This document shows positions 22,658 to 40,772 of a stretch of DNA of 64,000 nucleotides, one piece after another; the stretch's first letter is position 1, and every line of letters starts with the position of its first letter. Made by a program: the position numbers and the translations under genes. The notes under the pieces were generated by a model. It saw only the letters and a program-made list of their open reading frames with translations, was not told the origin of the DNA and made no database searches. The DNA lies in NCBI GenBank assembly GCA_042584585.1, contig JBHOSQ010000006.1, forward strand, positions 266 to 64,265, given 5' to 3'. The DNA comes from an archaeon. GTDB lineage: Archaea; B1Sed10-29; WALL01.

Positions 22658-23806
22658 ATGCCTACCTGGAGCCACTCCCGCATTTCGACGTACGAGTCCT
22701 GTCCCCTTAAATTCTTTTATTCTTACGTCGAGAAGCCGGATGTTGAGGAGGTATTGGGGGACAATATCGCTCTTGTGCTGGGCAAGAGCTGTCACGAGGC
22801 GCTTGAGTGGCTGTACAAAGAGCTGTCCATGGGCGGGGAGCCCACTCTGGACGACGCTATCGACTATTATACCCAATCCTGGGGCAAGATGTGGACCCCT
22901 GACGTCATTATCCCCAACCACGACGAAAAGACGTGGAAAAGCCTTGGGGTGCGGTACCTTGGCGACTTTTACAACAGGCATTCGCCGTTCATCGAGGACC
23001 GGACGGTTGCCCTCGAGAGAATGATTCGCCTTAAGCTCGGCAAATACAGCTTAATCGGCTATATTGACCGTATTGCCGAGGCTGGTCCCGGCCATTACAA
23101 GGTCATTGACTACAAAACGAATAAGTGGCTGGCGCCCCAGGAAAAGTTTGATTCCGACAGGCAGTTGGCGCTGTACGAGTTGGGGGTTCGTCAAATGTTT
23201 CTTGACGCCAAGAAAGTTGATTTGGTGTGGGAAATGCTTCACTTCAACAAGACCATTGTTTCGCATCGTTCTCCGGCGCAGCTCGCGGAACTGAAGCGCG
23301 ACACCATTGCTATTATACAAGAAATCGAGGAATGCGAAGACTACCCGGCCAAAACCAGTAAGTTGTGTGACTGGTGTTCGTTCCAGGAGATTTGTCCGAA
23401 GAAGAAGCACGAGCGCGCGACCACGCGCATGACGGTACGCGAGTTCCGCAAGGACGAGGGTGTGAAGGTCGCGAACAAGTTTGTGCAGACAAAGCTGAAG
23501 CTGGACGAGTGGGGGTTGAAGACCAACGAGGCGCGGAAGGACGTGTTGGCTTACAGCGAACAGCAGGATACTGCGAGAGTCATTGGGTCGAAGGCGGCTG
23601 TGTCGGTAAGCACGATGAAGAGGGTCTCATTCGACCCGAAGGTTGAGAAGCTGCTGAAGAAAGAGGGGTTGTGGGAGAGGTTTAGTAGGTTGGATAGTGG
23701 GGCTTTGGTTAAGGCGCTGGATGAGTTGGAGCCAAAGCTGAAGAAGAAGCTGGAGAAGCTTGAGGAGAGTAAAGAATCTTTGTCTGTGAGGGTTGTTAAG
23801 AAATAG
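22658..23806 (+). CDS. Cas4/RecB-like PD-(D/E)XK nuclease with predicted 4-Cys (Fe-S) cluster
   Basis: N-terminus MPTWSHSRISTYESCPLKFFY (first Cys). GYIDRI...YKVIDYKT is the D...(D/E)xK motif. QLALYELG is the QxxxY motif. C-terminal CDWCSFQEIC is CxxCx5C. The ATG is 29 nt after the promoter motif. No cas genes are nearby. Confidence 0.85.
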   Translation: MPTWSHSRISTYESCPLKFFYSYVEKPDVEEVLGDNIALVLGKSCHEALEWLYKELSMGGEPTLDDAIDYYTQSWGKMWTPDVIIPNHDEKTWKSLGVRYLGDFYNRHSPFIEDRTVALERMIRLKLGKYSLIGYIDRIAEAGPGHYKVIDYKTNKWLAPQEKFDSDRQLALYELGVRQMFLDAKKVDLVWEMLHFNKTIVSHRSPAQLAELKRDTIAIIQEIEECEDYPAKTSKLCDWCSFQEICPKKKHERATTRMTVREFRKDEGVKVANKFVQTKLKLDEWGLKTNEARKDVLAYSEQQDTARVIGSKAAVSVSTMKRVSFDPKVEKLLKKEGLWERFSRLDSGALVKALDELEPKLKKKLEKLEESKESLSVRVVKK

Positions 23807-26678
23807 TTTCTTCCACAATCCGCCGTTCTTTGGCACTTAAACCGTAGATATCATAAACGAGTTTATCAATCTTTGCATCAATAACAACGATTTCTTTTTC
23901 TAGTTTAGCACGCGCGTCCGTTTGTTTATCTCCAAATTCAGCACATTTGGAAGTTAAGCGCATCAGGACTTTTGCAAGTTTAATAATACTAGTTTTATTT
24001 TTCTCACTTGCGTTCGCTATAGGTAACCGCTCTAAGTACTGTTTATTACAAGAATAGAACCCCCCCCTGAAGGGCGTGCTTATCTTAGTTAAATAAAATG
24101 TTAATAACTTACTATTTAGTATGGCAGTAACATACTCGTAATCGTCATTGTTATCAAGTATAACTCCATTAACATCCACATTATCAAGGCAAAATTCCCC
24201 CTCAGAATCATAAACAGCATTAATACGGTGTGCTAACCGCGGGATGCAAATCTTCGGTAAGTGTTGTTTTGCTAGATTTTTAGGATAAACATATGCATAC
24301 CACTTTGATCCTTTCATCTTACCCTTTTCGCGATTTTCAAGCATTGATTTATTCTTGATTAGGTATTTTGCTAATTTGGGGTATGTTTTCTGCAATCTAT
24401 CAAATGGTAACAATACAGCTCGCCCCTCGGAAAGCACATATGGAAAAACCACGTGCTGTCTTGTTTTTAGTTCTTGGTAACGTTTAACATCAACACCGCT
24501 TAAAACTGGCTTTAGTAAAGGCGATTCAAGAGCAACCTCTTCTTTCAAAGAAACACTAACTAGTTTAGTGGATTCTACTCCGGAAAGTATCAGTGCCTTG
24601 TCTGCACTAGTTTGTACACCCACAAAAATTGATTGGGCTATATCGCCGAGTTTTGGGGATTTTTTTAACTTGTTAATTATTGGAAGCTCACTACTTGAAG
24701 CTAAAATCCAGGGGTCATCTTCTGTTGGGCGCGGAATCACAGATTTACTCAGATTTGTTTCGTTTAGACTCTGATCATTTTTTGTTTGTGTTGTCTTCAA
24801 CTCAGTATATTCAATTGGTTGTTTCGTTCCTTTTTTTAAGAAGAGTAAACAAGTGTATGTTGTGGCCCCTGAGAAAACTTGGAATTGTTTGAAATCAACT
24901 ATTTTGTGGAGCGCTTTCTTTGTGTGTATCACTTTGCGCAAGCCTTTACCATACTCTGCCGTAAAGAACTTAGAGGGTAAAATGTAACCCAACACCCCGC
25001 CTTCCCGCAGAAGACTCAATCCTTTCTCAACAAAAAGGCAATACATGTCATAGTTTCTTGTCGCGGCTTCATAATTAGAACTAAAATAGTTAACATCCTT
25101 CTTATTCATAGTTTGTAAGCGGATATACGGAGGGTTCCCAATTATTACGTCAAACCCACCCTCCTTCATCACATTCTCAAAGTTATCATTCCAGTCGAAA
25201 GTCTTGTCACCCGCCACTCCAGAGTCATCAATAAGGGAATTACCACACTTGATGCTGCCCTCCAAAGAGGGCAAAAGATGCCGTTTCTCAGTCATCTTCA
25301 GTAAAAGATTCAGCTGAGCTATTTCTACTGCTTTTTCATCAAGGTCAACACCGTGGATGTTATTTTTCAATATCTCAATCTTCTTTGTGATACGAGCACC
25401 ATCATCTCCGAGTTTCGACTGTGCATACTGCTTATCGTTCTTCATGTAATACTCATCAAGCACGTCAAAGGCTTTTATCAGAAATGAACCTGAGCCACAT
25501 GCAGGATCAAGTACGCGGATTTTATCCACATCCGCAGGCTTCTTTTTCTTTATTAGTTCGCCCAAAGTGTTCTTCACTATGTAGTCCACAATGTAAGTTG
25601 GTGTGTAGTAAATGCCTTGCTCCTTACGGTGTGATTTGCCCCCCGAAAGCTTAGCGCGTTTAGCCGTCGTCCGCAGGACAGAACCTAAATACTGCTCATA
25701 AACATTCCCAAGTACGTCTGCATCAATCAGCGCGAAGTCATATCGGACATTTCCATCCTTTGAGTAATACAAGGCATCTATGACACCATCAAGAACCGTA
25801 TCTGTTACTTTAACCTTGTCCGCTTCGTGCTCTTTTTCAGCGGTGCGACCGAACAGCTTACTGTCGTAGTTTTCACGATAATAACCAAAAATCTCCTTGA
25901 GTTCACGCGAGAGACTCCCACCCTTTTCGCGATAAGCATTCATGGATTCTTTGAGTTTGTTGCCCTCAATCTTTCTGTCCTCACAAGCACGAATAAAGAT
26001 CAAACGATCGATGATACGTTGAACTATCTCATCGATTTCTTCTTGCGAGTACTTGTCGGGGTGTGCCTTTTTTATGTCTTTTGACAAGGCTGCGCGCCAG
26101 ACTAATAGTTCTTTCAGCAATAGTTCGGAAACGCTCTTGCGTGGCGTCCTCTTGCCAACTGTAATTGCGTAGTCAACCATGGCATTTTTGTCGAACGCTT
26201 CCTTGCTAAGTAACCAGAGCTTGTCGAATTCGTTAAGAAATTGAGTGTAGCGGAGCTCAAACACTTGGTTACGCCAGATGTTTTGCTCATTCCACTCACA
26301 ATTAAAGACCTTGAGTCCCTCAAAATCAGTAAGCACGGCCCAGGTCACTCCTTTGTTGAAACCATAGGATATAGCCTGTTTCGCGAACTCGCTGTTATCT
26401 AAGTTTGCTTTTGCCCCTTTAGCTTCAACGAAAAATCTTATGACGCCATCTAAGCGGAAGGCATAATCCGCACGACCCCGAAGCACGCGCTGCTCTTTAA
26501 TAACCTCATCATCTGTGCGCTCGTTGCGCATATCCCAACCGAGCGCTTCGAATAAGGGTTCAATGAACTCATTTTTAGTGCGTTCCTCGGAATAACCACG
26601 TAACTTGTCCTCGTCAACAATACGCTGGAACTTAGTGATTAACCCTTCAATTCGTTGTTTAGCATTTCCTTTATCCAC
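23796..26678 (-). CDS. Type IIG restriction-modification enzyme (Eco57I/MmeI-like: N-terminal PD-(D/E)XK nuclease fused to gamma-class N6-adenine methyltransferase and target-recognition region)
   Basis: 960 aa. N-terminus RADYAF...FFVEAKG is D...ExK. GIYYTPTYIVDYIV, then VLDPACGSGSFLI (motif I) and FDVIIGNPPYIR (NPPY motif IV). GTG start. AT-rich codon usage unlike the flanks. Confidence 0.85.
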   Translation of the reverse strand: MDKGNAKQRIEGLITKFQRIVDEDKLRGYSEERTKNEFIEPLFEALGWDMRNERTDDEVIKEQRVLRGRADYAFRLDGVIRFFVEAKGAKANLDNSEFAKQAISYGFNKGVTWAVLTDFEGLKVFNCEWNEQNIWRNQVFELRYTQFLNEFDKLWLLSKEAFDKNAMVDYAITVGKRTPRKSVSELLLKELLVWRAALSKDIKKAHPDKYSQEEIDEIVQRIIDRLIFIRACEDRKIEGNKLKESMNAYREKGGSLSRELKEIFGYYRENYDSKLFGRTAEKEHEADKVKVTDTVLDGVIDALYYSKDGNVRYDFALIDADVLGNVYEQYLGSVLRTTAKRAKLSGGKSHRKEQGIYYTPTYIVDYIVKNTLGELIKKKKPADVDKIRVLDPACGSGSFLIKAFDVLDEYYMKNDKQYAQSKLGDDGARITKKIEILKNNIHGVDLDEKAVEIAQLNLLLKMTEKRHLLPSLEGSIKCGNSLIDDSGVAGDKTFDWNDNFENVMKEGGFDVIIGNPPYIRLQTMNKKDVNYFSSNYEAATRNYDMYCLFVEKGLSLLREGGVLGYILPSKFFTAEYGKGLRKVIHTKKALHKIVDFKQFQVFSGATTYTCLLFLKKGTKQPIEYTELKTTQTKNDQSLNETNLSKSVIPRPTEDDPWILASSSELPIINKLKKSPKLGDIAQSIFVGVQTSADKALILSGVESTKLVSVSLKEEVALESPLLKPVLSGVDVKRYQELKTRQHVVFPYVLSEGRAVLLPFDRLQKTYPKLAKYLIKNKSMLENREKGKMKGSKWYAYVYPKNLAKQHLPKICIPRLAHRINAVYDSEGEFCLDNVDVNGVILDNNDDYEYVTAILNSKLLTFYLTKISTPFRGGFYSCNKQYLERLPIANASEKNKTSIIKLAKVLMRLTSKCAEFGDKQTDARAKLEKEIVVIDAKIDKLVYDIYGLSAKERRIVEETIS

Positions 26679-26700
26679 GGACTAGGCTATTGATTTGACG

Positions 26701-26717
26701 AATTTATGCCTACCGGT
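26701..26717 (-). promoter_or_regulatory. island-specific promoter motif (type IIG gene)
   Basis: The reverse complement is accggtaggcataaatt, with the TATA about 28 nt upstream of the GTG start at 26678. Confidence 0.5.
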
Positions 26718-26775
26718 AGCGAGATAGGATCTGATGAACCGAAAAGATCAAAAATGGGGCCTTCGTTAGGCCCCT

Positions 26776-27927
26776 ATGGCGAAGAGTATCTGGGAAACCG
26801 CAGTTGAGGTCCTTAAAAAACACGGTCAACCAATGCATTACACTGAACTATCCAAAAATGTCTTTAAGAGCCATGATACAAAAGGCAAAACCCCTTGGCA
26901 AACACTAAACGCTCAGATGAATCGAAAAAATATGGTTTTCCAGAGATTCGGACCAGGGATATACGGCCTTGTTGAATGGAAGGGACGCAATATCCCTGCG
27001 GGCGAAAAGTACAGGGGATTGTGGCCACTACCAGGAGGAACCAAACAGTACGTAGATACATTATTTTCAGCATTGCGTTATGTAAAAAGAAACAAACCAA
27101 AAATGAAGGAGTTTGTAAAGTGGTTTCTGAAGGAATATGGCAAATTGAAAAGCCCGGGGGTGGCAAGATCTTATATTTACTTGATTAAAAAGCTGGGTTT
27201 CATCAAGAAAGAAGGAAAAATTTACATTCTGACGGACCTCGGAAAAACTGCAGTGAAGACCCGGTCTTACTCTTTTGTTTTTGATGTGTTAGATGCTAGC
27301 TTTTTGGGTGTTAGAGATCTGCTTCAAAGGGTTAAAGGAAAATCGTCCTCTTTAGAAGAGTTAAACAAATTTCTCAAAAATAAATATGGCACGGGTTGGA
27401 AGGGAACCGCACAAGCATTATGGAGAACACGTTGGTTGATAAGTCTAGGCGCACTTGAGAAAAAAGGGGGTAACTATTTTATCACAAAAACCGGGGAAAA
27501 ACTCCTTTCCAGACCACTATTAACAGTTGCAGTAAAAAAAGAAAAAGTAAAGGTTCAAAAAACGCCTCAAGCAAGGATTCGCCGCATAGTCGGGAAAAGA
27601 ACTAGTTTAGCTGGAATGAGTTACGAGCCAGTAAACGAGAAAGGCGTTATATTCCTTTTTGGATACTACCTCAAGAAACTAGGTTTTTCTCATGTCGAAG
27701 CAGTACAAGCAGGATTCCCTGATGCTACGGCAATACGGCCGATAGGCAAAAATAAACTAGAGGAAGTAAGGATAGAGTTTGAGTTCAAAAGCAGTAACTT
27801 CAAACAACACAAGCATATTGTCCAACAATGCGACCTCATAGTATGCTGGCAACATGATTGGAAAGATTGTCCCTTGGACGTTATAGAGTTAAAGAGCAAA
27901 TTGGAAGAGCTTGAAAAGGGTACGTAA
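26776..27927 (+). CDS. HARE-HTH domain protein with C-terminal PD-(D/E)XK-like nuclease fold
   Basis: N-terminus SIWETAVEVLKKHGQPMHYTEL...TPWQTLNAQM...FQRFGPGIYGL is the HARE-HTH signature. C-terminus GFPDATA...VRIEFEFKS...CDLIVCWQHDW fits PD...ExK. It is divergent from the type IIG gene. Confidence 0.6.
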   Translation: MAKSIWETAVEVLKKHGQPMHYTELSKNVFKSHDTKGKTPWQTLNAQMNRKNMVFQRFGPGIYGLVEWKGRNIPAGEKYRGLWPLPGGTKQYVDTLFSALRYVKRNKPKMKEFVKWFLKEYGKLKSPGVARSYIYLIKKLGFIKKEGKIYILTDLGKTAVKTRSYSFVFDVLDASFLGVRDLLQRVKGKSSSLEELNKFLKNKYGTGWKGTAQALWRTRWLISLGALEKKGGNYFITKTGEKLLSRPLLTVAVKKEKVKVQKTPQARIRRIVGKRTSLAGMSYEPVNEKGVIFLFGYYLKKLGFSHVEAVQAGFPDATAIRPIGKNKLEEVRIEFEFKSSNFKQHKHIVQQCDLIVCWQHDWKDCPLDVIELKSKLEELEKGT

Positions 27928-27931
27928 GTAG

Positions 27932-28150
27932 TCAACAAACCCTCGCCATCCTATACCCTCCTTCTTCCGCTTCCTCGGCGCCTCTAAACCAAACCCTGTT
28001 CTCCACCTTTATACGATTAGCGTACATGCAGCCTGGCCGGTGGTAGACGTCCGAGTTCTTACTGCCCACGAACGGGCCTCCGTAGGTCAAGTCGTCCCAT
28101 TGGAGGGCGAGGACGAGAATTAAGAGGATGAGGATTAAACGGTAGTCCAT
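27932..28150 (-). CDS. small membrane-anchored protein with Ada-like metal-binding motif
   Basis: 72 aa with an N-terminal TM (LILILLILVLAL). VYHRPGCMYANRI...FRGAEEAEEGGYRMARVC resembles the YHxxxC...GYRxC motif. Confidence 0.4.
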   Translation of the reverse strand: MDYRLILILLILVLALQWDDLTYGGPFVGSKNSDVYHRPGCMYANRIKVENRVWFRGAEEAEEGGYRMARVC

Positions 28151-28188
28151 AAACTAAGTGAGCAAAAATTCGTTTAAATAGGCTTCGC

Positions 28189-28536
28189 CTATGTAACTTG
28201 CCGAGAATGTCTCTCTTTTTCCCTTGCTTTAGCCTTCTGGCGATATTCCTTCAGATAGGCCTTCCTTTTCGTTGTCTGGTCTCGTTTCCGTAACCGTTTC
28301 TTCACTTCGGGACGCCGATTATACTCATAAGCATACTCGCGCTTCCGTTCTTTAGCTTCAGGACGCTGCTGATACTCACGTATGTACTTTCGCCTACGCT
28401 CCTTGACGTCTGGACGCTGGAAATACGCCTTAGCATACTCTGCCCTACGCGTCTTGGGTTCATCCTTTTTGTAGTACTCCCGCATATACTCTCGTAAGTA
28501 CTCACGTCGCTTTTGTTCAGGTGTTGATGTAGGCAT
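28189..28536 (-). CDS. highly basic tandem-repeat protein
   Basis: 115 aa with about three repeats of a ~17-aa unit (QRPDVKERRRKYIREY / QRPEAKERKREYAYEY / RRPEVKKRLRKR). Function unknown. Confidence 0.5.
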   Translation of the reverse strand: MPTSTPEQKRREYLREYMREYYKKDEPKTRRAEYAKAYFQRPDVKERRRKYIREYQQRPEAKERKREYAYEYNRRPEVKKRLRKRDQTTKRKAYLKEYRQKAKAREKERHSRQVT

Positions 28537-28597
28537 TGATTGCTTCTTTGGAACACACGATTGATAAAGCTTTGGCTAATAACCCTTCATCGCCTTC

Positions 28598-29716
28598 CTA
28601 CACTCCTTTCCTAACCCATTCGCCGATAGTACCATTTTTCTCAATTTTCTTGACTAATCCCGAATCTGGAAAATTGTCACCTAGAGACGAATTACACCAT
28701 TTGCAGGTTAGGTAAAGATTATCTGGATGGTTTACATTAGTATGCAAAAAAGTAAATTTACTGGCCCAGTTTTGGGGGATTATATGGCCAAACGCCAGGT
28801 CTTTATCCAGAATGTCTGCAAAGGGCTTGTGTTCACAACCAGTCCCCGGGCAGGTCTTAGCATGTTTCCGTGCATAGCTCTTTAGCTTCTTTGATCTATG
28901 GCCCTTAAGATTCTCAAAACTATATTCCATAGCCATTTCTTCATCAAGAGGTCGCCGTTGTTTTATATCGTGGGATATTTCTGAAGCAAAAAGTCCATTT
29001 ATGATTTCCATGGCATCGTTTCTGCCTAGTAACTGCACCTCAACTGGATCCTGTATCCGGCTTTTTCTTTTTGTAGGCTTAATCTTACCTGGGCAGATTA
29101 TGAATACTTGGTTTAACCCTTCATCTATCTTGTAATCAAACCACATTACCACAAGAACTAACCCAGAATAATACAACTCTTTTGCGAGTAACTCAGTGAA
29201 ACGATATCGGAGCATGCCCACCCAATTTAAAGGAGGTTGATATACAAAAGTACCATCTGGCGAGATTTCGTCTTTATAGTTCCCAAAAGAATGTCTGAAT
29301 GCTAACAGCGTAAGTTTATTTTTGGAGAGTAAGACACCATGTTCTTCTGGACGGAGTATCCGTGATTTTTTGTTTGTGGGTAACAATTGAGCCCCTAAAG
29401 AAACTAATTTATCTGCAGTGAATACATCTAAATCCCGATCCCGCATCTGCCAAGCACGAATGAATGCTGGGGGCGTACTTACTAATGGGAGCATACGGCG
29501 TATTTGAGCGTAGGTGTAATGCAATTCTTGTTCATAAAAAACGGGTTTTTTGTTAAGACGACTAAAACTTCTCATTAAAGAATCTTTACTTACTAGAATC
29601 GTCCCTTCGTGCCCGTGAATAGAAACTTTCTTGTCTGTATCACTGTATGACTCAATGTATTCAACAAGCTTGCCTTTAGTCTTTTTTATGCGCTGTTGAA
29701 GGAGAGTTTCCACCAT
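28598..29716 (-). CDS. HNH endonuclease with large uncharacterised N-terminal domain
   Basis: C-terminus CPGTGCEH...FGHIIPQNW...HPDNLYLTCKWCNSSLG is an HNH beta-beta-alpha-Me motif with flanking Cys pairs. The N-terminal ~280 aa is unassigned. It shares promoter motif CCGRTAGGCATAAATT with the type IIG gene. Confidence 0.7.
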   Translation of the reverse strand: MVETLLQQRIKKTKGKLVEYIESYSDTDKKVSIHGHEGTILVSKDSLMRSFSRLNKKPVFYEQELHYTYAQIRRMLPLVSTPPAFIRAWQMRDRDLDVFTADKLVSLGAQLLPTNKKSRILRPEEHGVLLSKNKLTLLAFRHSFGNYKDEISPDGTFVYQPPLNWVGMLRYRFTELLAKELYYSGLVLVVMWFDYKIDEGLNQVFIICPGKIKPTKRKSRIQDPVEVQLLGRNDAMEIINGLFASEISHDIKQRRPLDEEMAMEYSFENLKGHRSKKLKSYARKHAKTCPGTGCEHKPFADILDKDLAFGHIIPQNWASKFTFLHTNVNHPDNLYLTCKWCNSSLGDNFPDSGLVKKIEKNGTIGEWVRKGV

Positions 29717-29737
29717 AACTGCCTTAGTGGGTGGCTT

Positions 29738-29754
29738 AATTTATGCCTATCGGT
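29738..29754 (-). promoter_or_regulatory. island-specific promoter motif (HNH gene)
   Basis: The reverse complement is accgataggcataaatt, with the TATA about 25 nt upstream of ATG 29716. It matches 26701-26717 at 16 of 17 positions. Confidence 0.5.
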
Positions 29755-29900
29755 CCATCAACCATAGGCCACGTCTATATCCTCCGTCCCTTTAGCAATC
29801 CATCGCTCAAGCATCAAACCGAGCTTCTAGGCATACTAATATATTAAAAATGGGTGTACCACTATAATCTTTATTCCATGAAGTCCCATAGTGATAATCC

Positions 29901-32042
29901 ATGAAAAAACCCGTGAAAACCATCAAGTTTACGGTTGACGCCAAACTCCTTGAAGAACTTGGTGAACGTTTGGTAGGAAAACCGTACGTAGCCCTAGCCG
30001 AATTGATCAAAAACAGTTATGACGCAGATGCCACGAAGGTAACAATAAAACTTGATGATCAAAACGATTCAATAACTATAGAGGATAACGGACACGGCAT
30101 GAATAAGACTGAATTCACGAACTTTTGGATGCGCATAGGATCAAGGCATAAGGAAAGACAGAAATTTTCAACGGGATTTAAGAGGCCAATCACGGGATCT
30201 AAGGGAGTCGGGAGACTGGCGGTACAACTCTTAGCAAATAACCTACTACTTGAGACCGTGTCCAAAAAGGATAAGACTAAAAAGATAATCTCACGTGTTG
30301 ATTGGAAAAAAGCGATTAACCAAGGTGAGCTGACCAACGCCGAAGCGGAGTATGAGACTAAAAAATCAAAAGAAGGCTTCAAGCCTGGGACAAAGATTAC
30401 TCTCAATGGATTAAAACAGAAGTGGGATGACGAAAAGATAGGTGGTTTGGCTACGCAGATATGGGTTTTACAGCCCCCCTTTGGTGGAAAGTCGCTTGGA
30501 AAGAAAGAACAAAGAATTGCTTTTGATATAGATCTTGAATCTCCTAACAAAGAATTGGAGAAAGAATTTAAGGATAAAATTAACGCGATTAGAGGGATAT
30601 GGCACGCAAGGATAGTTGGCGAAAACAAAAAAGGCCGCGTTAAAATCCACTTTGAGTTCCGAGGGGGAGAACCAAAAACGTGGGAATTTAGAATACCCCA
30701 CGCTGCCCTTGAGGGTGGAAACTTCGACATACGAGTGTATAAATTACAAGGAAAACAGCCAGAAGGGATACTGGTGGATGACGCCCGTGACTATTTAAGA
30801 ACCCACGGGGGAGTCCATGTGTATGACACTGGCTTCCATCTCCCACAGTATGGGAGCGGCCCTGAAGAAGATTGGTTGGGTCTAGAAATGCAACACGCAC
30901 ATCGATTGAGTAAGTCTCAGCTGTTGCCAGACAATATGCAAAAGGACTTTGAACACCCACTGAATAACATTCCTACCCTAACCCGTGTTTTGGGTGTTGT
31001 AAATGTGAACACATCAAAAGAAACAGATTTAGACATACTTGTAACCAGAGATAGACTAAAAGACACCCAAGCGTTTCAGGATCTAAAACTGATCTGCCAG
31101 ACTGCCATGCATTTCTATGCAGTGGAAGAAACGAGAAGGAAAAATCGGGTGAGGGCAAGATGGGGCGAGATAAAGAAAAAAGATGAGGAATTTAAGAGAG
31201 TGGAGGAAGTTCTTGAAAAGCACAAGTCGCAGATTCCTAAAAAAGTGTATGAAGAAGTCCACGAGAACATTGAACGGGTTATGGACAAGATTGGAACAGA
31301 ATCGAAGGCAGTAACGAAGAGACTGTCTTTAATGGGTGCTCTCGCCACGGCTGGCATTTCGTCTCTAGCAGTGCAACACGAATTGAAGAGACAGTTTAAA
31401 GGTATTAGGGACATAACTGTCCAGATAGACCAACTCAACATAAAAGATAAAGAAGAGAGAGCAAGATTACAGAACTTGAAAAGGAAGTTAACGGATTGGC
31501 TCCATCGAGCTGAAGCAGTAAATAATCTCTTTGCTTATGTGACTGATGAAAGTAACAGGGGCAAAGCGAGTAGATCCCGCGCCCTAAGTGTTGTAAAAGA
31601 GCTCGTGGGACAATTAGGGCCAGTTATGGAGGGGGCAACTATTCATACAGATAGATTGGATAAGGATATACTCCTCCCCAAAGCAACAATGGCGGAATGG
31701 GGCTCAATATTCCAAAATGTGTTCTTGAACGCATTTAATGCCATGCTTAGTTCTAAGAAAAAGATTATCGATGTGAGTTCAAGAAGGGAGGGTAAATCGC
31801 GCGAGATTGTAATACAGGACACCGGTTGTGGTCTTGAACTCAAGAATTCGGAGAAACTATTCGAACTTTTCGAACGGGGGGCGGAGTTATCCTCCGCACG
31901 ACGGGATCTGGGATATGGTGGGGGCGGAATGGGACTCACGATAGTGAGGTTCATTGCGAGGAATATAGGCTGTAAAGTCGCATTCGTAGAACCAGAGGAT
32001 GGATTCAAAACTGCATTTAGCATAAAATGGGAGGAGATATGA
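29901..32042 (+). CDS. dual GHKL protein: N-terminal MORC/Hsp90-like ATPase (HATPase_c_3-type) fused to a C-terminal histidine-kinase core (HisKA-like H-box plus HATPase_c)
   Basis: N-terminus: LAELIKNSYDADA (Bergerat motif I), IEDNGHGM (motif II), GSKGVGRLA (motif III). C-terminus: SLAVQHELKRQF (H-box-like), IFQNVFLNAFNAM (N box), IQDTGCGL (G1), LFELFERG (F), GGGGMGLTIV (G2). Confidence 0.8.
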   Translation: MKKPVKTIKFTVDAKLLEELGERLVGKPYVALAELIKNSYDADATKVTIKLDDQNDSITIEDNGHGMNKTEFTNFWMRIGSRHKERQKFSTGFKRPITGSKGVGRLAVQLLANNLLLETVSKKDKTKKIISRVDWKKAINQGELTNAEAEYETKKSKEGFKPGTKITLNGLKQKWDDEKIGGLATQIWVLQPPFGGKSLGKKEQRIAFDIDLESPNKELEKEFKDKINAIRGIWHARIVGENKKGRVKIHFEFRGGEPKTWEFRIPHAALEGGNFDIRVYKLQGKQPEGILVDDARDYLRTHGGVHVYDTGFHLPQYGSGPEEDWLGLEMQHAHRLSKSQLLPDNMQKDFEHPLNNIPTLTRVLGVVNVNTSKETDLDILVTRDRLKDTQAFQDLKLICQTAMHFYAVEETRRKNRVRARWGEIKKKDEEFKRVEEVLEKHKSQIPKKVYEEVHENIERVMDKIGTESKAVTKRLSLMGALATAGISSLAVQHELKRQFKGIRDITVQIDQLNIKDKEERARLQNLKRKLTDWLHRAEAVNNLFAYVTDESNRGKASRSRALSVVKELVGQLGPVMEGATIHTDRLDKDILLPKATMAEWGSIFQNVFLNAFNAMLSSKKKIIDVSSRREGKSREIVIQDTGCGLELKNSEKLFELFERGAELSSARRDLGYGGGGMGLTIVRFIARNIGCKVAFVEPEDGFKTAFSIKWEEI

Positions 32043-32043
32043 C

Positions 32044-33252
32044 ATGGGCAAGGGCAAGATATTTGTGTATGATGATGAACCAGAAAGCGCAACACAATAC
32101 AAAAATAAATTAGAACACCTTGGGATTGTTTCAAAGAAGTTCAAAGTCGAACGTATAACAAAAGAAGAGTTTGAAAATCCGAAAAAAGGGATTGGAATAT
32201 TGCGAGATAGACGAGAAAAGTTAAGATCCAAAAAGATAAGGTTAGAGGGCTCTATATTCGACGAAGAAAATGCCATATTTCTTATAGATTACGATCTTGT
32301 TGGGGGTGCTGAACAACTCGGTATCCGGACTGGCGAAGATGTAGCATACTTTCTACGCTGTTTTTCGAAGTGTGGTTTGATAATCGGGGTGAGCACATTA
32401 TGGGATAATGTTTTCGACCTCTCACTCAAAAGCGAATCAGAGCATTATTTAGACTTGCGGATTGGTGGAGCTCAAGTGGATAATGCGAGGTTATGGGGTG
32501 AAGGAGAAGAGGAGTTCAGGCCATGGTCCTGGCCTGACTTAAACCGCTTATCCGAGACCTTTGAAAAGAGAGTACGAGATGTGAAAAGTAACTTTGACAA
32601 AGAGATATACGACACACTCGGTTTCTCAACTAGCATAGCTAAATACCTCCCCCCGTCCGTAAGTGAGTTTTTGGGTGGTGAACCACTTAAAGTGACATTC
32701 AGAGACTTCCTCACAGGATCTGAGAAAGGCTTAGATGGCAAAGACCGGGATTACGTCGATAACCTCCCAAAAAATCAACAAGCCAGGTTAACTGCGGCAC
32801 GGTTGTCCAGATGGCTTGAAACGGTTGTCTTGCCCGATCAGGATATTCTTGTGGATGCCCCCCACCTCGTCTCCAGGCTACCAACTCTCTTGAAAAAGAC
32901 CAACCCAACTGTAGAGGATCTAAATAAGACAGCTAGTTTTGGAGACGCGGAAAAACTTGGGCTGAAACATGAAGATATAGAAGAGTTCAGATTCAAGAAG
33001 GACTATTGGTTATCCAGATCAGCGTGGTTTTGGAGTGAACTCTCTGAGAATATAGACTGGTTAAAACAAAAAGGGGGAAAAAGAGTGTTGCTCAATGATA
33101 ACGTATTCTGTGAAGATACATCTAGATTTCACAAAAGAGAGCGATGTAAGGAATTCGAGGCAGATATATCCTCCCCGTATAGACGGCGTTACGTGAAAAA
33201 ACTGGGCGGCGATTTTAGGTATGAGAACCCCGGCAGACTCTCCAGCATTTGA
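32044..33252 (+). CDS. receiver(REC)-like N-terminal domain protein with uncharacterised ~270-aa C-terminal domain
   Basis: The start is 1 nt after the upstream stop, with GGGAGGAG SD-like sequence upstream. KIFVYDDEPE (acidic pocket-like) and AIFLIDYDLVGG (candidate phospho-acceptor Asp) suggest a divergent REC fold. The spacing is longer than canonical. Confidence 0.5.
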   Translation: MGKGKIFVYDDEPESATQYKNKLEHLGIVSKKFKVERITKEEFENPKKGIGILRDRREKLRSKKIRLEGSIFDEENAIFLIDYDLVGGAEQLGIRTGEDVAYFLRCFSKCGLIIGVSTLWDNVFDLSLKSESEHYLDLRIGGAQVDNARLWGEGEEEFRPWSWPDLNRLSETFEKRVRDVKSNFDKEIYDTLGFSTSIAKYLPPSVSEFLGGEPLKVTFRDFLTGSEKGLDGKDRDYVDNLPKNQQARLTAARLSRWLETVVLPDQDILVDAPHLVSRLPTLLKKTNPTVEDLNKTASFGDAEKLGLKHEDIEEFRFKKDYWLSRSAWFWSELSENIDWLKQKGGKRVLLNDNVFCEDTSRFHKRERCKEFEADISSPYRRRYVKKLGGDFRYENPGRLSSI

Positions 33253-33295
33253 ATTGGCGTTATTCCAATAAAAAAATACGGAGTAGGAATTGAAA

Positions 33296-33976
33296 ATGAG
33301 TTATGGATCTTCACCCGATCAGATTTTTTCCACAATGTTAGGAATGTTCAAAGGACTACTCGATCACTCAGCTAGTATGTATAACACCGACCGAGGAGAG
33401 CGGATCCCAGATAGCGCGAAAGAGTCGTATAACGGACTAGCACGAAAACTTGAACCCATAACAACGAAAGAGCTTGAGGTGGTGTTTAAAGATAAGGATT
33501 TCTCTCTTTTGGAAACAAAGCCATTGTATCTGCCTTATGCTGATGACGACCAAAAAGTCATACCAATAATCCAAGGTATAGAGTTTGATTTCGCTAGGGA
33601 AACCGATAATATCAAAATCAAATTAGCACTTTGTGATTATTCCAAACCAGAAGAGTATGGTTGCAGGTGTGTTTGTTTCCGACTTGAAGGACCCCACCCC
33701 TCAAACAGTAAACATAACTATTATCATTTGCAAGTCACCGCAGTAGAGGGCGCATTAAAGGAATTTGTGCGGGACACACAAACTGAAGATCTGCAAGAGC
33801 CTATTGATTGGATCCCCGAACATGCGCCACGTATCCCCCTAATGGCAGAGTGCCCTGTAACTCTCCTCATAGCTCTTTTACTCAGTTTGTACGGGAGCAA
33901 ACGAATAGTGAAATATGTTGATCTTAATCGGTTGGATGGGAAATGGCCAGGACTGTTTAACGACATAATGTCCTGA
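33296..33976 (+). CDS. hypothetical protein, third gene of the GHKL operon
   Basis: About 226 aa, same strand, 40-nt gap with GGAG upstream. A hydrophobic segment VTLLIALLLSLYG lies near the C-terminus. No domain recognised. Confidence 0.55.
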   Translation: MSYGSSPDQIFSTMLGMFKGLLDHSASMYNTDRGERIPDSAKESYNGLARKLEPITTKELEVVFKDKDFSLLETKPLYLPYADDDQKVIPIIQGIEFDFARETDNIKIKLALCDYSKPEEYGCRCVCFRLEGPHPSNSKHNYYHLQVTAVEGALKEFVRDTQTEDLQEPIDWIPEHAPRIPLMAECPVTLLIALLLSLYGSKRIVKYVDLNRLDGKWPGLFNDIMS

Positions 33977-34010
33977 GGGGCAGCTTTTTTACTTCGTGAA
34001 TGCCAAGGTA

Positions 34011-35072
34011 TTATGCACATCGCTTCAAATGCTCTTGTATGGAGCGCCCTATTGCCTCTGCCAATTTAACAGGAACTGCATTGCCAATTAGCCGTCCTAA
34101 CTCACCCTTACATACCCGTGCACCATCTGGAACAAATCTATAGTTTGCTGGAAAGGTTTGTAGCAAAGCCGCTTCCCTGAAAGAGATGGCCCTGTCTTGT
34201 TCGGGATGTCCAAAACGACCAGTTCCGTAGATGTATGATTGTGTTGTGATTGTGGGGGACGGTTTGTCCCATTCCATCCGACCATACACCGGCGTATAAC
34301 TTTTACCGGAAGGTTTTTTGTGGCATTCTAGCCTGAGGCGTGGTGGCCAGTCCATCCAAGTGCCACCTGGTTTAGAAGCTCTTATCCTTTCCAGGTTTTT
34401 GCTGCTCAAGCGTGAAGCTTCGTGTATAAAATCGTTAGCATCTTGCTCACCTGCATGTAGAGGTGAGAGAGCGCCTATCGCTCCTCTGACTGTGGAGTAT
34501 TCTGTTTCATCAGCACAAATCGGCGGGATCATATTTATCTTACCAAGCCGTGAAGCTAAAAGCACTAACCTACGCCGACTTTGTGGCACCCCATAACCCC
34601 GGCAATCTCGTATCGCCCAATCTGTTTGATATTCCAACTTGTCAAGTGCCGACAAAAAATCCTGGAACACTTCGTGCCTACACAGCCCGGGCACATTCTC
34701 CATCGTAACTATATCAGGAGTGATATTGCGAATGCACCGAGTGAAGGAGTTCAACAGCCTCCACTTATCATTTTTCTTGTCGCTATCATCTTTCTTGTCG
34801 CGCTTATGCCCTAACTGGGAGAACGGTTGACAAGGCGCACACCCCGCCAGTATCCGCACGCCATTTTTGGGATAAAGAGCTTCAATGTCTCGACTGGTCA
34901 TTCTTTTGATATCCCCTTCAATAAAGACTGCGTCCGTGTTCTCCTCGTAGGGGAAACGGCACGCGGGATCGTTGTCTATGCCCGCCACGACCTTAATGCC
35001 TTCTCGCTCCAAACCATAGGTTAACCCCCCAGCACCGCAAAATAGGTCAATGGCGTAGGCATCTGAGGGCAT
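34011..35072 (-). CDS. dcm: DNA (cytosine-5)-methyltransferase
   Basis: All hallmark motifs are present: DLFCGAGGLTYG (I), GCAPCQPFS (IV, PCQ), TMENVPGL (VI, ENV), QSRRRLVLLAS (VIII), GNAVPVKLAEAIG (X). TATA ttataaata lies 25 nt upstream. Confidence 0.92.
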   Translation of the reverse strand: MPSDAYAIDLFCGAGGLTYGLEREGIKVVAGIDNDPACRFPYEENTDAVFIEGDIKRMTSRDIEALYPKNGVRILAGCAPCQPFSQLGHKRDKKDDSDKKNDKWRLLNSFTRCIRNITPDIVTMENVPGLCRHEVFQDFLSALDKLEYQTDWAIRDCRGYGVPQSRRRLVLLASRLGKINMIPPICADETEYSTVRGAIGALSPLHAGEQDANDFIHEASRLSSKNLERIRASKPGGTWMDWPPRLRLECHKKPSGKSYTPVYGRMEWDKPSPTITTQSYIYGTGRFGHPEQDRAISFREAALLQTFPANYRFVPDGARVCKGELGRLIGNAVPVKLAEAIGRSIQEHLKRCA

Positions 35073-35164
35073 CGCGTAAGATACAGCGGAGGGGTATTTA
35101 TAACCTTTATAGGGCCTTACCTGACTTCCACTAGAGCTACAGCTAACCTTTTAAACCAAAAAAA

Positions 35165-35188
35165 TAGTTGGCAGTGCATAGTCGTTGT
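35165..35188 (+). repeat. second copy of the 23S 3'-trailer processing-stem half
   Basis: agttggcagtgcatagtcgttgta, located 140 nt outside the functional copy and at the right edge of the AT-rich island. Confidence 0.8.
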
Positions 35189-35328
35189 ATATGCCGGATT
35201 AACCGCCAATGCTGGCCTTCCAACAAATAACTATGAACTCAACCAGTAGGAGTGGCACGTACATATGTGCCATTATATATCCTTTAGTTAAATGAATCCG
35301 CATAAGCTCAAACTCAAATAATTGGGGT

Positions 35329-35354
35329 AGTTGGCGTGTGCATAGTCGTTGTGA
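35329..35354 (-). other. 23S rRNA 3' processing-stem half
   Basis: Its reverse complement ..CACAACGACUAUGCACACGCCAACU pairs with 5' flank GUGCAUAGUCGUUGU (38429-38443). A further GUAGGUU/AACCUAC pairing lies next to the mature ends. Confidence 0.75.
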
Positions 35355-35383
35355 ATGAGGTGTAGGTTTCTGTGCAATTCCAT

Positions 35384-38397
<3,014 letters not shown>

Positions 38398-38428
38398 TAT
38401 TTCTTTCACGGGAACCTACATTTCCTCT

Positions 38429-38443
38429 ACAACGACTATGCAC
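38429..38443 (-). other. 23S rRNA 5' processing-stem half
   Basis: acaacgactatgcac on the + strand is complementary to 35340-35354. Confidence 0.75.
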
Positions 38444-38606
38444 GTAAGTTTTACCGACAACACCTGCCAAAGCGCCGTCTCCTTACATCGCATCACGAAA
38501 TTACTCGCGATGTTCATTCGTAATCGGTCCATGCCCGACTCAGCTCCGGCCGAAGCCGGCGTCATTGCCTTCGATACATGGACAATGGTTGTTAAATGGA
38601 TGAACG

Positions 38607-39047
38607 TTATTTCTTCTTTTTTTCTTCCTCGAGCTCTTCAATGGCCCGAAGCTTTTCCTTGACGCCGAGCTGTTTCAACAGCGCGTCGTCCTCGGCCGCC
38701 TCTTTTTTCGCGCGCGACTTTGCCTTGATTTCTTCGATTTTCCGCAGCACCTTGATGCGGCCCTCGAGGCTCTTCACGAACGCGTTGCGCGCGTCCCACT
38801 CCTCGTTAATCGCGGCCTTTTCTTTATCGGTAAAAGGCTCTGCGCCCTTCTGCCCCGCCTCCAAGTCCTCCGGACGTACCGGGCGGGGAAGGATGAGCTC
38901 CGAATTCTTGATTGCTTCTTCCAATGCCTTGACCGTGTTTTTGCAGTCGTGGCAAACCGACAAATGGTCTCCTACTCGCATCGCCGGGACTTTTTGTTTC
39001 TGGCAAGACGCACAAAGCACCTTCTTTTCCTCAATTATCTCGGGCAT
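38607..39047 (-). CDS. zinc-ribbon / coiled-coil protein encoded inside the rRNA operon spacer
   Basis: 146 aa with CASCQK..x15..CHDCK followed by a K/E-rich helical tail. The ATG is only 16 nt downstream of the tRNA-Ala 3' end. The overlapping + ORF 38596..39051 is S-rich and antisense-like. Confidence 0.55.
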   Translation of the reverse strand: MPEIIEEKKVLCASCQKQKVPAMRVGDHLSVCHDCKNTVKALEEAIKNSELILPRPVRPEDLEAGQKGAEPFTDKEKAAINEEWDARNAFVKSLEGRIKVLRKIEEIKAKSRAKKEAAEDDALLKQLGVKEKLRAIEELEEEKKKK

Positions 39048-39063
39048 GTGAACTCACTTGAAA

Positions 39064-39137
39064 TGGACTCGGGGGGATTTGAACCCCCGACCCCCCGCTT
39101 GCAAAGCGGGTGCTCTTCCGAACTGAGCCACGAGCCC
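39064..39137 (-). tRNA. tRNA-Ala (anticodon UGC), no encoded CCA
   Basis: Hand-folded: acceptor GGGCUCG/CGAGUCC with G3:U70. D arm GCUC..GAGC. Anticodon arm CCCGC-UUUGCAA-GCGGG. T arm GGGGG-UUCAAAU-CCCCC. Discriminator A. Confidence 0.9.
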
Positions 39138-39157
39138 AGCTCAATTAAGTGTTAAAA

Positions 39158-39171
39158 ATGTGGGTAACTGC
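39158..39171 (-). other. 16S rRNA 3' processing-stem half
   Basis: atgtgggtaactgc is perfectly complementary to gcagttacccacat at 40890-40903. Confidence 0.7.
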
Positions 39172-39298
39172 CTCAAACGAGTGGTCATAGGATAAAGCAA
39201 AAAGTTTGCTCCAATTAGCTGCACACTCGTAAGTTAGGTGGGGAGGCAGCCGACCGACGTTGACCGAAGTCAACGTCAATGGCTGCTCCCCGAATCTA

Positions 39299-40772
<1,474 letters not shown>

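Follow-up and report, generated by a model that had tools for sequence, protein, structure and literature searches.

A putative restriction-modification-like cassette of a MORC-like histidine kinase, a receiver-like protein, a conserved third protein and a C5 methyltransferase in an archaeal low-GC island

A class of soluble histidine kinases, in which a HATPase_c_3 domain is followed by HEF_HK and HATPase_c domains and the DHp region holds a conserved His-Glu pair, has been described in bacteria by computation alone (Bellieny-Rabelo, Pretorius & Moleleki 2021, Genome Biol Evol 13:evab024; PMC8011034). In that survey, which searched bacteria only and used a receiver-like query of 600 aa, a receiver-like gene (Response_reg_2) was linked to 91.6% of the kinases across 644 bacterial regions, C5 methylases were found upstream, and Vsr, HNH_2 and restriction-modification (R-M) genes were enriched nearby. 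The kinases were derived from the paraMORCs, and the authors speculated that they regulate R-M systems. The paraMORCs had earlier been placed in R-M systems (Iyer, Abhiman & Aravind 2008; PMC2292703), with neither a fusion to the DHp and catalytic (CA) domains of a kinase nor a receiver partner. Here we describe a related cassette from a 64,000-nt stretch of archaeal DNA (contig JBHOSQ010000006.1; "the window"), in which three open reading frames (ORF1-3) on the plus strand converge on a gene for a C5 cytosine DNA methyltransferase.

ORF1 (29901-32042) encodes 713 aa and is named "ATP-binding protein" at NCBI; ORF2 (32044-33252, 402 aa) begins after a gap of a single nucleotide behind the ORF1 stop codon; and ORF3 (33290-33976) encodes 226 aa from the ATG at 33296, the NCBI start, or 228 aa from an in-frame TTG at 33290. 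An initial annotation, made from the sequence and its translated ORFs, had proposed a new type of two-component defence operon here. The coordinates, the 1-nt gap and the third ORF of about 226 aa are as it gave them, and the motifs that it cited (ELIKNSYDADA, DNGHGM, GSKGVGRLA, AVQHELKRQF, IFVYDDEPE and IFLIDYDLVGG) are all present in the translations. Its claim of a new system type was overstated, the class having been computed in 2021; the window cassette is a distinct, uncatalogued form of that class. We think the chances somewhat better than even that ORF1-3 and the methyltransferase make up a four-gene, laterally mobile, R-M-like cassette, which, to judge by the sequences, would provide a methylation-guarded defence gated by His-to-Asp phosphotransfer.

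The kinase and its receiver-like partner

The hallmark of MORC and paraMORC ATPases is a set of N-terminal GHKL motifs I-III followed by an S5-like transducer domain. The N-terminal module of ORF1 (aa 30-148; 29988-30344, plus strand) is a Bergerat-fold ATPase of MORC/MutL/Hsp90-like type that matches PF13589 (HATPase_c_3) at E 2.2e-29 and carries the GHKL motifs of this group: E34, N38, D62, G64, G66, G99, K101, G102 and G104 (Bergerat motifs I-III) are invariant in an alignment of 29 diverse homologues, which includes plasmid relatives at about 23-25% identity. The same part of the protein resembles the BbrUII/HgiDII restriction enzymes (E 6.9e-30), MutL, Hsp90 and MzaB, all below the family cut-offs, and it alone accounts for the PADLOC v2.0.0 matches of ORF1, which are to REase_II models only. 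It is followed by a middle region (aa 150-470) with conserved G304, F312, G318, W325 and R383.

The C-terminal part comprises a DHp-like helical region (approximately aa 470-560; 31308-31580, plus strand), with the H-box pair His493-Glu494 at nt 31377-31382, and a CA domain (aa 602-709; 31704-32027, plus strand) that matches PF02518 (HATPase_c) at E 3.8e-20; both Pfam ATPase matches are far above chance level. In the 29-homologue alignment H493 and E494 are invariant even in the plasmid relatives of about 23% identity, as are N606 and N610 (N box), D640, G642 and G644 (G1), and G674, G676 and G678 (G2). ORF1 thus has the acceptor histidine in a DHp region and the N, G1 and G2 boxes of a classical two-component kinase, and the two Bergerat modules and kinase core of the initial annotation are borne out. 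Pfam HisKA finds no match in ORF1. A profile of the ORF1 family matches the DHp and CA domains of solved kinases, with 1.6e-20 for FixL chimeras and further matches to ThkA, HK853, CpxA, EnvZ, SrrB and WalK; the alignments start a little ahead of the H-box and place His493 on the histidine of the FixL H-box AHELNQPL, and the NCBIfam models PhoR, AtoS, TtrS and FixL align from aa 466-491 to approximately aa 657-693. The phosphatase motif of HisKA proteins is H-E-x-x-T/N; in ORF1 and its homologues the residue four positions after the histidine is R, K or Q, not T/N. More than 2700 database proteins match ORF1, and all 120 listed have the two-domain architecture, at 46-55% identity. ORF1 is predicted to be soluble, and no fused nuclease domain was found in it with Pfam, NCBIfam or PADLOC. 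By its sequence, then, ORF1 joins a GHKL module of MORC/paraMORC type to a genuine kinase core of the HisKA type.

Receiver domains have a (beta-alpha)5 fold and carry a metal-binding Asp pair after strand 1, the phospho-acceptor after strand 3, a Thr/Ser after strand 4 and a Lys after strand 5. ORF2 itself has no match in Pfam, NCBIfam or PADLOC; 602 homologues were detected, none with a Pfam domain, and 26 members of the family searched against Pfam gave no match. In an AlphaFold model built from 26 sequences (mean pLDDT, the predicted local distance difference test, of 76.8) the strands of the N-terminal half (4-9, 33-37, 78-82 and 112-117) alternate with helices, and the best Foldseek matches in the PDB are the receivers NarL, RcsB, DesR, CheB and MtrA, with probabilities of 0.95-1.0. 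The full-length alignments to NarL and RcsB have a root-mean-square deviation (rmsd) of 11-14 Å, so that only the receiver part of the match is credible. Within that part, the acidic residues D10 and D11, where strand 1 ends, and D82 (nt 32287-32289), where strand 3 ends, are invariant, and K129 is mostly conserved and falls in a low-confidence stretch of the model. In a profile comparison the IDYDL..TGE region aligns with the partner of a related kinase on a Campylobacter plasmid (E 6e-4), which in turn matches Pfam Response_reg at E 2.4e-5, below the Pfam cut-off, and the apparent tie of ORF2 to canonical receivers thus runs indirectly, through the Campylobacter protein. The receiver-like N-terminus that had first been read from two short motifs is therefore also predicted by the model: the N-terminal 150 aa or so appear to form a receiver-like domain with an acidic pocket.

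The remaining 250 aa or so of ORF2, described at the outset as free of recognisable motifs, are indeed of no known family. They are modelled as mostly helical with a small sheet at the end and contain the conserved motifs VDAPHL..R.P.L, FCEDxSxF and SP..RR. Foldseek and a PDB profile search match this domain to nothing known, the PDB sequence search with the ORF2 profile giving noise only, and no helix-turn-helix (HTH) or other DNA-binding domain was found in it among the 26 members.

Conservation of the cassette and its genomic settings

An alignment-based scan of one genome per species recovered 59 related loci, where a genome scan with ORF2 alone had yielded none. The hosts include many Poribacteria, as well as Chloroflexota, Bacteroidota, WOR-3, Acidobacteriota, Actinomycetota, Pseudomonadota, Cyanobacteria and Elusimicrobiota, and, among archaea, Bathyarchaeota, Aenigmatarchaeota and Thorarchaeota. 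A clustering of all ORFs showed the order ORF1-ORF2-ORF3 to be constant in 55 loci, spanning more than ten bacterial and three archaeal phyla. Homologues of ORF1 and ORF2 are adjacent in all 55 loci with both genes, the reading frames overlap or nearly abut (medians of -19 nt and +7 nt), and ORF3 directly follows the ORF2 homologue in 41 of the 43 loci whose flanks reach at least 1.5 kb on each side. Two different ORF1 homologues of Poribacteria (P0079 and P0088), for each of which the longest contig on record has 2,463,942 bp, are probably located on one contig. In five loci (L024, L046, L047, L051 and L066) ORF1 or ORF2 is split into fragments by frameshifts or insertions, which hints that these genes are often inactivated, a common fate of defence genes that are costly.

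ORF3 represents a conserved family of its own. BLAST detects homologues at 25-33% identity in most related loci, and HMMER, run in full over 1.84 billion representatives, returned 244 at E<=1e-3; a word-indexed search, which had returned only ORF3 itself, was in this light an artefact of sensitivity. It is the fastest-evolving component, with a mean pairwise identity of 30% compared to 41-56% for the others. In an AlphaFold model from 77 sequences (pLDDT 89.4; predicted template modelling score, pTM, 0.88) helices form an N-terminal bundle, four antiparallel strands (90-100, 107-116, 126-133 and 146-150) form a sheet, and there are further helices. R131, H142, H146 and P180 are invariant in the family and E133 and Q148 nearly so, and in the model the polar residues among these sit on neighbouring elements: R131 and E133 on strand 3, H142 in a loop, and H146 and Q148 on strand 4. 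Foldseek finds nothing credible for this model (best E 0.34 in the PDB and 0.17 in BFVD), which agrees with the early impression of an unknown third protein. None of the 77 members has a Pfam match, the window copy has no NCBIfam or PADLOC match, the PDB sequence search with the ORF3 profile gave noise only, and the model shows no receiver fold.

The C5 methyltransferase (34011-35072, minus strand), which had been taken for a mere flanking gene, is a conserved member of the cassette and its presumed modification partner. The window enzyme is full length (PF00145, E 2.8e-58), with the catalytic motifs FCGAGG, PCQ and ENV. Across the 43 loci with sufficient flank, a C5 methyltransferase lies within 300 bp in 32 and within 3 kb in 35; 20 of the 32 adjacent genes are upstream on the same strand, seven downstream on the same strand, four downstream and convergent, as in the window, and one upstream on the opposite strand. 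Most of the adjacent enzymes are about 50% identical to that of the window, some cassettes have a different C5 family, and in a clade further removed an Eco57I-like methylase is present as well. As in R-M systems, a modification methyltransferase is thus linked to the cassette.

Outside the cassette the gene neighborhoods are variable and rich in defence genes, namely type I R-M, AAA_15/DUF3696, SIR2, SNF2+NOV_C, AbiE and prokaryotic Argonaute (pAgo) genes, rather than the conserved housekeeping surroundings that the initial annotation had named as a ground for refutation. In a sample of ten large flanking genes from ten diverse loci, five are related to defence or R-M (HsdM, HsdR, a DUF1156 methylase, SNF2+NOV_C and SIR2), four are of other or housekeeping function (aconitase, an ABC transporter, a nitrilase-family CN_hydrolase protein and a TPR protein) and one has no Pfam match. 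In Poribacteria (L008, L012, L013, L019-L021 and L029) a conserved type I R-M locus with HsdR, HsdS and HsdM encloses the cassette, and these loci also have, next to it, an AAA_15/AAA_21/DUF3696 ATPase with a small partner gene. Three of them (L012, L020 and L021) have no adjacent C5 methylase, and such cassettes may rely on another methylase. A gene for a HhH-GPD base-excision glycosylase stands directly 3' of ORF3 in four loci (L018, 10885-11610; L025; L026, 10092-10814; and L048), of which three are labelled Anaerolineae and one Chloroflexota. This placement may fit repair of 5-methylcytosine (5mC) deamination, which is the job of Vsr beside C5 methylases. No copies of the cassette were found in phage genomes or viral contigs.

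More distant sister systems are found on plasmids, where a tblastn search with ORF1 gave 92 records and the relatives align over their full length at 23-25% identity. The copy of Mycolicibacterium arabiense (L062; plasmid pJCM18538, NZ_AP022592, 60750-65039; kinase, 415 aa and 236 aa, with dcm and Eco57I methylases near) belongs to the same family, and is the only one of the sister systems recognised by hidden Markov models of the ORF2 and ORF3 families. The others comprise a kinase, a 340-aa "response regulator" and dcm in Campylobacter (L061); an Eco57I-like methyltransferase, a kinase and proteins of 355 and 225 aa in Paraburkholderia (L060); a kinase, proteins of 367 and 289 aa and an N6 methyltransferase beside pAgo in Hymenobacter (L064, plasmid NZ_CP014303); a kinase, a 209-aa receiver, an HNH protein and an N6 methyltransferase in Bacteroides finegoldii (L065); an N6 methyltransferase, a fragmented kinase, a 168-aa receiver-like protein and an HNH protein in Klebsiella variicola (L066); and a kinase with a 433-aa protein, near AbiE, Vsr and dcm, in Agrobacterium salinitolerans (L068). 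What these systems share is a methylase together with a GHKL-kinase and a receiver protein; a third gene is frequent, and in two sister subfamilies it encodes a recognisable HNH nuclease, accompanied by a short receiver. This is the main reason for seeing a candidate effector in ORF3 and/or the C-terminus of ORF2. The third gene of Paraburkholderia has the motif H..[FY]HAQL in common with the ORF3 family, a similarity that is only suggestive (E 0.02). The Hymenobacter kinase, of 875 aa, has some 150 additional N-terminal residues, and its gene adjoins the Piwi-domain (pAgo) gene and two methylases. One Enterobacter sister protein gave a weak PDC-M60B match in PADLOC v2.0.0.

In the window the cassette lies in a low-GC island (approximately 24000 to 34000; GC 0.38-0.45 against about 0.52), which contains a type IIG R-M enzyme, a HARE-HTH/winged-helix protein, a weak HNH-like protein, ORF1-3 and the convergent C5 methyltransferase; the AT-rich setting and its genes had been correctly placed by the initial annotation. 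It had also named the HNH and type IIG genes as neighbours, and both are present, but neither proved to be a conserved partner across the 59 loci. The HNH-like gene (28598-29716, minus strand; 372 aa), which is divergent from ORF1 and has a weak C-terminal match to HNH_5 and a Septu PtuB-like protein, was considered as the partner nuclease and rejected, since a homologue occurs in none of the 59 loci; it is probably an independent island gene. The type IIG enzyme (23796-26678, minus strand) was rejected as well, with similarity in only seven related loci, at 20-23% identity and in varying positions. A 17-nt box, AATTTATGCCTAYCGGT, occurs at 26701-26717 and at 29738-29754 with 16 of 17 positions identical, about 22 nt 5' of the start codons of the type IIG and HNH-like genes, both on the minus strand; the similarity around the two copies is confined to the box, which could serve both genes as an archaeal promoter (TATA-like ATAAAT) or else act as an operator. 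At the other end of the cassette, a stem-loop followed by a T-run at 33969-33992 (plus strand), at the ORF3 stop codon, is possibly the operon end; it was picked out by a consensus scan only, and in an archaeon such a signal does not speak for function.

Beyond the methyltransferase gene stands an archaeal 16S-tRNAAla-23S operon (35391-40771, minus strand), in line with the archaeal context that had been claimed, and NCBI gives the proteins the label "archaeon". The island borders the 3' end of the 23S rRNA gene, and the gap between them (35073-35390) has a 20-nt direct repeat (35174 and 35338). No att-like direct repeats were found to bound the island, and no 5S rRNA, integrase or tRNA target was found in this gap or in the whole window. 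Within the rRNA operon, in the spacer between the tRNA-Ala and 23S genes and on the same strand, is an ORF of 146 aa (38607-39047, minus strand) that starts with a CxxC...CxxC zinc ribbon, has a tail rich in Lys and Glu, corresponds to the NCBI hypothetical protein ACFLQ2_02865 and is a singleton in the protein collection. A protein of 770 aa, rich in Thr and Ser and with an N-terminal hydrophobic segment, is encoded just past this operon (41166-43478, minus strand). Inside the island, a strongly basic ORF of 115 aa (28189-28536, minus strand) consists of about five degenerate repeats (..RR.EY..EY..RPEVKER.RKY..), without a match in Pfam or NCBIfam and with its exact sequence absent from the protein collection. 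The HARE-HTH and winged-helix protein (26776-27927, plus strand) ends in about 80 aa (IEFEFK...CDLIVCW) that are 37% identical to the product of a Bathyarchaeota gene (L004, 13013-13753, minus strand) located some 2 kb downstream of the Bathyarchaeota copy of the cassette, and that are possibly a PD-(D/E)xK-like end.

A possible mechanism and its alternatives

In the scheme that we favor, the C5 methyltransferase would mark host DNA, as its conserved linkage suggests. ORF1 would be a soluble, dimeric kinase in which the paraMORC-type GHKL ATPase takes the usual place of the sensor. By analogy with MORC and MutL, this module may close on DNA or on a partner upon binding ATP, and the closure might be relayed via a long helical linker to the DHp region and so set the autophosphorylation of His493, both the signal and the kinase activity being predicted. 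The phosphoryl group would then pass from His493 to Asp82 in the receiver-like domain of ORF2, a transfer that we infer because the two genes are so tightly coupled. Finally, the C-terminal domain of phosphorylated ORF2, together with ORF3, would execute or license a response to DNA without the methyl mark, most likely cleavage and otherwise abortive infection. ORF3 would most likely be the effector or a target-recognition subunit, and nuclease activity of ORF3 or of the ORF2 C-terminus is possible; alternatively ORF3 might modulate the phosphorelay, ORF1 being without the HisKA phosphatase motif. Stated in full, as a phosphorelay-gated restriction system in which a MORC-like clamp reads DNA, phosphotransfer switches on an effector of new fold against DNA without the cognate C5 methylation, and the whole has spread laterally across bacterial phyla into archaea, the proposal is tentative, and we regard it as possible rather than probable.

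Several lines of evidence speak for a methylation-guarded, phosphotransfer-gated defence. The two ATPase modules and the H-box are intact and do not vary within the family, and the receiver-like fold of ORF2 places D10, D11 and D82 as in receivers. The order of ORF1-3 is fixed, they are linked to the C5 methyltransferase, and genes for T:G repair (HhH-GPD here, Vsr in the published family) stand alongside. The flanks are rich in defence genes, the window copy occupies a low-GC island beside a type IIG enzyme, sister systems combine a methyltransferase, a kinase, a short receiver and an HNH protein, and phage copies were not found. Other observations weigh against it. Pfam, NCBIfam, PADLOC, the PDB sequence search and Foldseek recognise no nuclease or other effector domain in ORF1-3, and hence none detects among them an endonuclease directed against unmodified DNA. 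The receiver call for ORF2 rests on the predicted fold: the Foldseek E-values are weak (approximately 1e-3 to 1e-1), the comparison of the ORF2 profile with a CheY profile is not significant, and the end of strand 4 is Asn/Gln in most homologues instead of the usual Thr/Ser. About a quarter of the loci are without an adjacent C5 methyltransferase. Closely related cassettes are paired with different methyltransferase families and no component clearly tracks the methyltransferase, which leaves recognition of the methylated site unexplained; the tracking was judged by correlations of pairwise identity, which are confounded by phylogeny and gave no clear answer. Our literature search also found no experimental study of the window family or of the published sister family.

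A different view is that the cassette is a regulatory two-component system without an effector of its own, in which ORF1 senses a cytoplasmic cue, such as nucleoside triphosphate level or the state of the DNA, and phosphorylated ORF2 binds DNA and controls the linked methylase, other R-M genes or island genes. This is the speculation of the 2021 paper (PMC8011034), in which the kinases are linked to R-M systems as regulators. In its favour, ORF2 aligns over its full length with NarL and RcsB in Foldseek, a nuclease domain was not found in ORF1-3, and response regulators are for the most part transcription factors. Yet the NarL and RcsB alignments are credible for the receiver part alone, as their rmsd of 11-14 Å indicates, and an HTH or other DNA-binding domain is missing from the C-terminus of ORF2 in the 26 members. 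The strictly conserved third gene, and the HNH nuclease that takes its position in sister systems, suit an effector complex better, and the cassette moves as a unit among very different genomes and flanks, which is unexpected for a regulator of host genes. We consider purely regulatory function unlikely.

The failure of sequence searches to identify ORF2 as a receiver could be read as a sign that no phosphotransfer takes place, the kinase-like and receiver-like parts being structural relics in an ATP-driven R-M complex. ORF1 would then be a double GHKL clamp or motor comparable to MutL, MORC or the type II enzymes of the BbrUII/HgiDII family with their fused GHKL domain, with ORF2 and ORF3 as adaptor and nuclease subunits. 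The resemblance of the ORF1 N-terminus to the BbrUII/HgiDII enzymes and to the REase_II models of PADLOC is in accord with this, as is the absence of the strand-4 Thr/Ser from most ORF2 members. What makes it quite improbable in our judgement is that neither the H-box His-Glu pair nor the Asp-Asp/Asp pocket varies, even at about 23% identity, which is hard to explain without phosphochemistry, and that the kinase core scores against solved kinases as a normal HisKA-type DHp and CA unit. The MutL-like character of the N-terminal module, taken with the tight linkage of the cassette to C5 methylases, also brings to mind repair of deaminated 5mC, with ORF1 as a MutL-like ATPase handling T:G mismatches that arise from the linked methylase, by analogy with Dcm-Vsr-MutL; in very-short-patch repair MutL stimulates Vsr. 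A repair module would be redundant where separate T:G repair genes (Vsr or HhH-GPD) stand beside the cassette, as they often do; sister subfamilies are linked to N6-adenine methylases, which pose no deamination problem; and the flanks are defence islands. This last explanation seems to us very improbable.

If the cassette works as a phosphotransfer-gated defence, it would be an R-M system that uses two-component phosphotransfer as an internal switch, joining two fields that are usually separate, and a histidine kinase would have a MORC-type ATPase as its sensor. It would further offer a concrete bacterial and archaeal model for the coupling of MORC-type ATPases to DNA methylation. The cassette is widespread, and ORF2 and ORF3 are recognised by none of Pfam, NCBIfam and PADLOC. 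ORF3, a confidently modelled family for which the PDB and BFVD searches gave no structural relative, might have an enzymatic activity, or one in DNA recognition, that is new.

Comparison with known systems

The initial annotation saw no match to a named system, and PADLOC v2.0.0 bears this out, its only hits in the trio being those of REase_II models to the ORF1 ATPase. Four named systems were considered as identities and rejected. The preprint on MADS names a histidine kinase only as a flanking marker gene and is silent on GHKL, HATPase and receiver; the similarity to MzaB (MZA), like that to REase_II, is confined to the N-terminal ATPase of ORF1; the VcSduA protein of Shedu (paraMORC3) has a PD-(D/E)xK nuclease fused to it, which the window cassette lacks; and Hma was likewise set aside. 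In the 2026 DefensePredictor work, a figure legend spells out HATPase and REC as domain abbreviations for systems that are predicted and unvalidated; these may or may not include the present kind.

With the paraMORC and MORC ATPases of R-M systems the window cassette has in common an N-terminal HATPase_c_3 module with intact motifs that is followed by a conserved middle region, the association with cytosine methylases, Vsr and HNH genes, and lateral mobility. In contrast to paraMORC3/VcSduA of Shedu and to the GHKL-nuclease fusions of BbrUII/HgiDII type, ORF1 has no fused nuclease.

Detocs reportedly consists of a kinase (DtcA), a buffer receiver (DtcB) and a receiver-effector (DtcC) with a PNP-type or other effector domain. 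The window cassette recalls the three-protein defence logic of a histidine kinase and receiver proteins, as Detocs is said to have it, and its small third component could modulate the relay. It differs from Detocs as reported in that the sensor part is a GHKL ATPase, that there is one recognisable receiver and neither a PNP-type nor another known effector domain, and that a DNA methylase is an integral part, implying self-protection based on modification. PADLOC v2.0.0 gave no Detocs match for ORF1-3; whether this release contains Detocs models is unconfirmed.

The closest relatives remain the kinase systems of the 2021 survey (PMC8011034). Both they and the window cassette have a soluble kinase of HATPase_c_3, a DHp region with His-Glu and HATPase_c; a receiver-like protein encoded directly downstream, with an acidic pocket and a remainder of no known family; and, usually, an adjacent C5 methylase, with Vsr, HNH and R-M genes in the vicinity. 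The families themselves are different: ORF1 and ORF2 of the window do not match PF19191 (HEF_HK) or PF19192 (Response_reg_2) even at E<=10. Among the plasmid relatives from Paraburkholderia, Campylobacter, Enterobacter, Hymenobacter, Bacteroides, Klebsiella and Agrobacterium PF19192 was not found either, and the sole PF19191 signal among the homologues tested is a sub-threshold one (E 0.0079) in the Paraburkholderia plasmid kinase. The receiver-like partner in the window has about 400 aa and a different C-terminal domain, compared to the published query of 600 aa. The window family also extends to archaea (the unclassified archaeon of the window, Bathyarchaeota, Aenigmatarchaeota and Thorarchaeota), and it has a conserved third gene, the ORF3 family, that does not appear in the paper. 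Where the paper proposes regulation of R-M systems, the window cassette points to a putative effector cassette that brings its own methylase.

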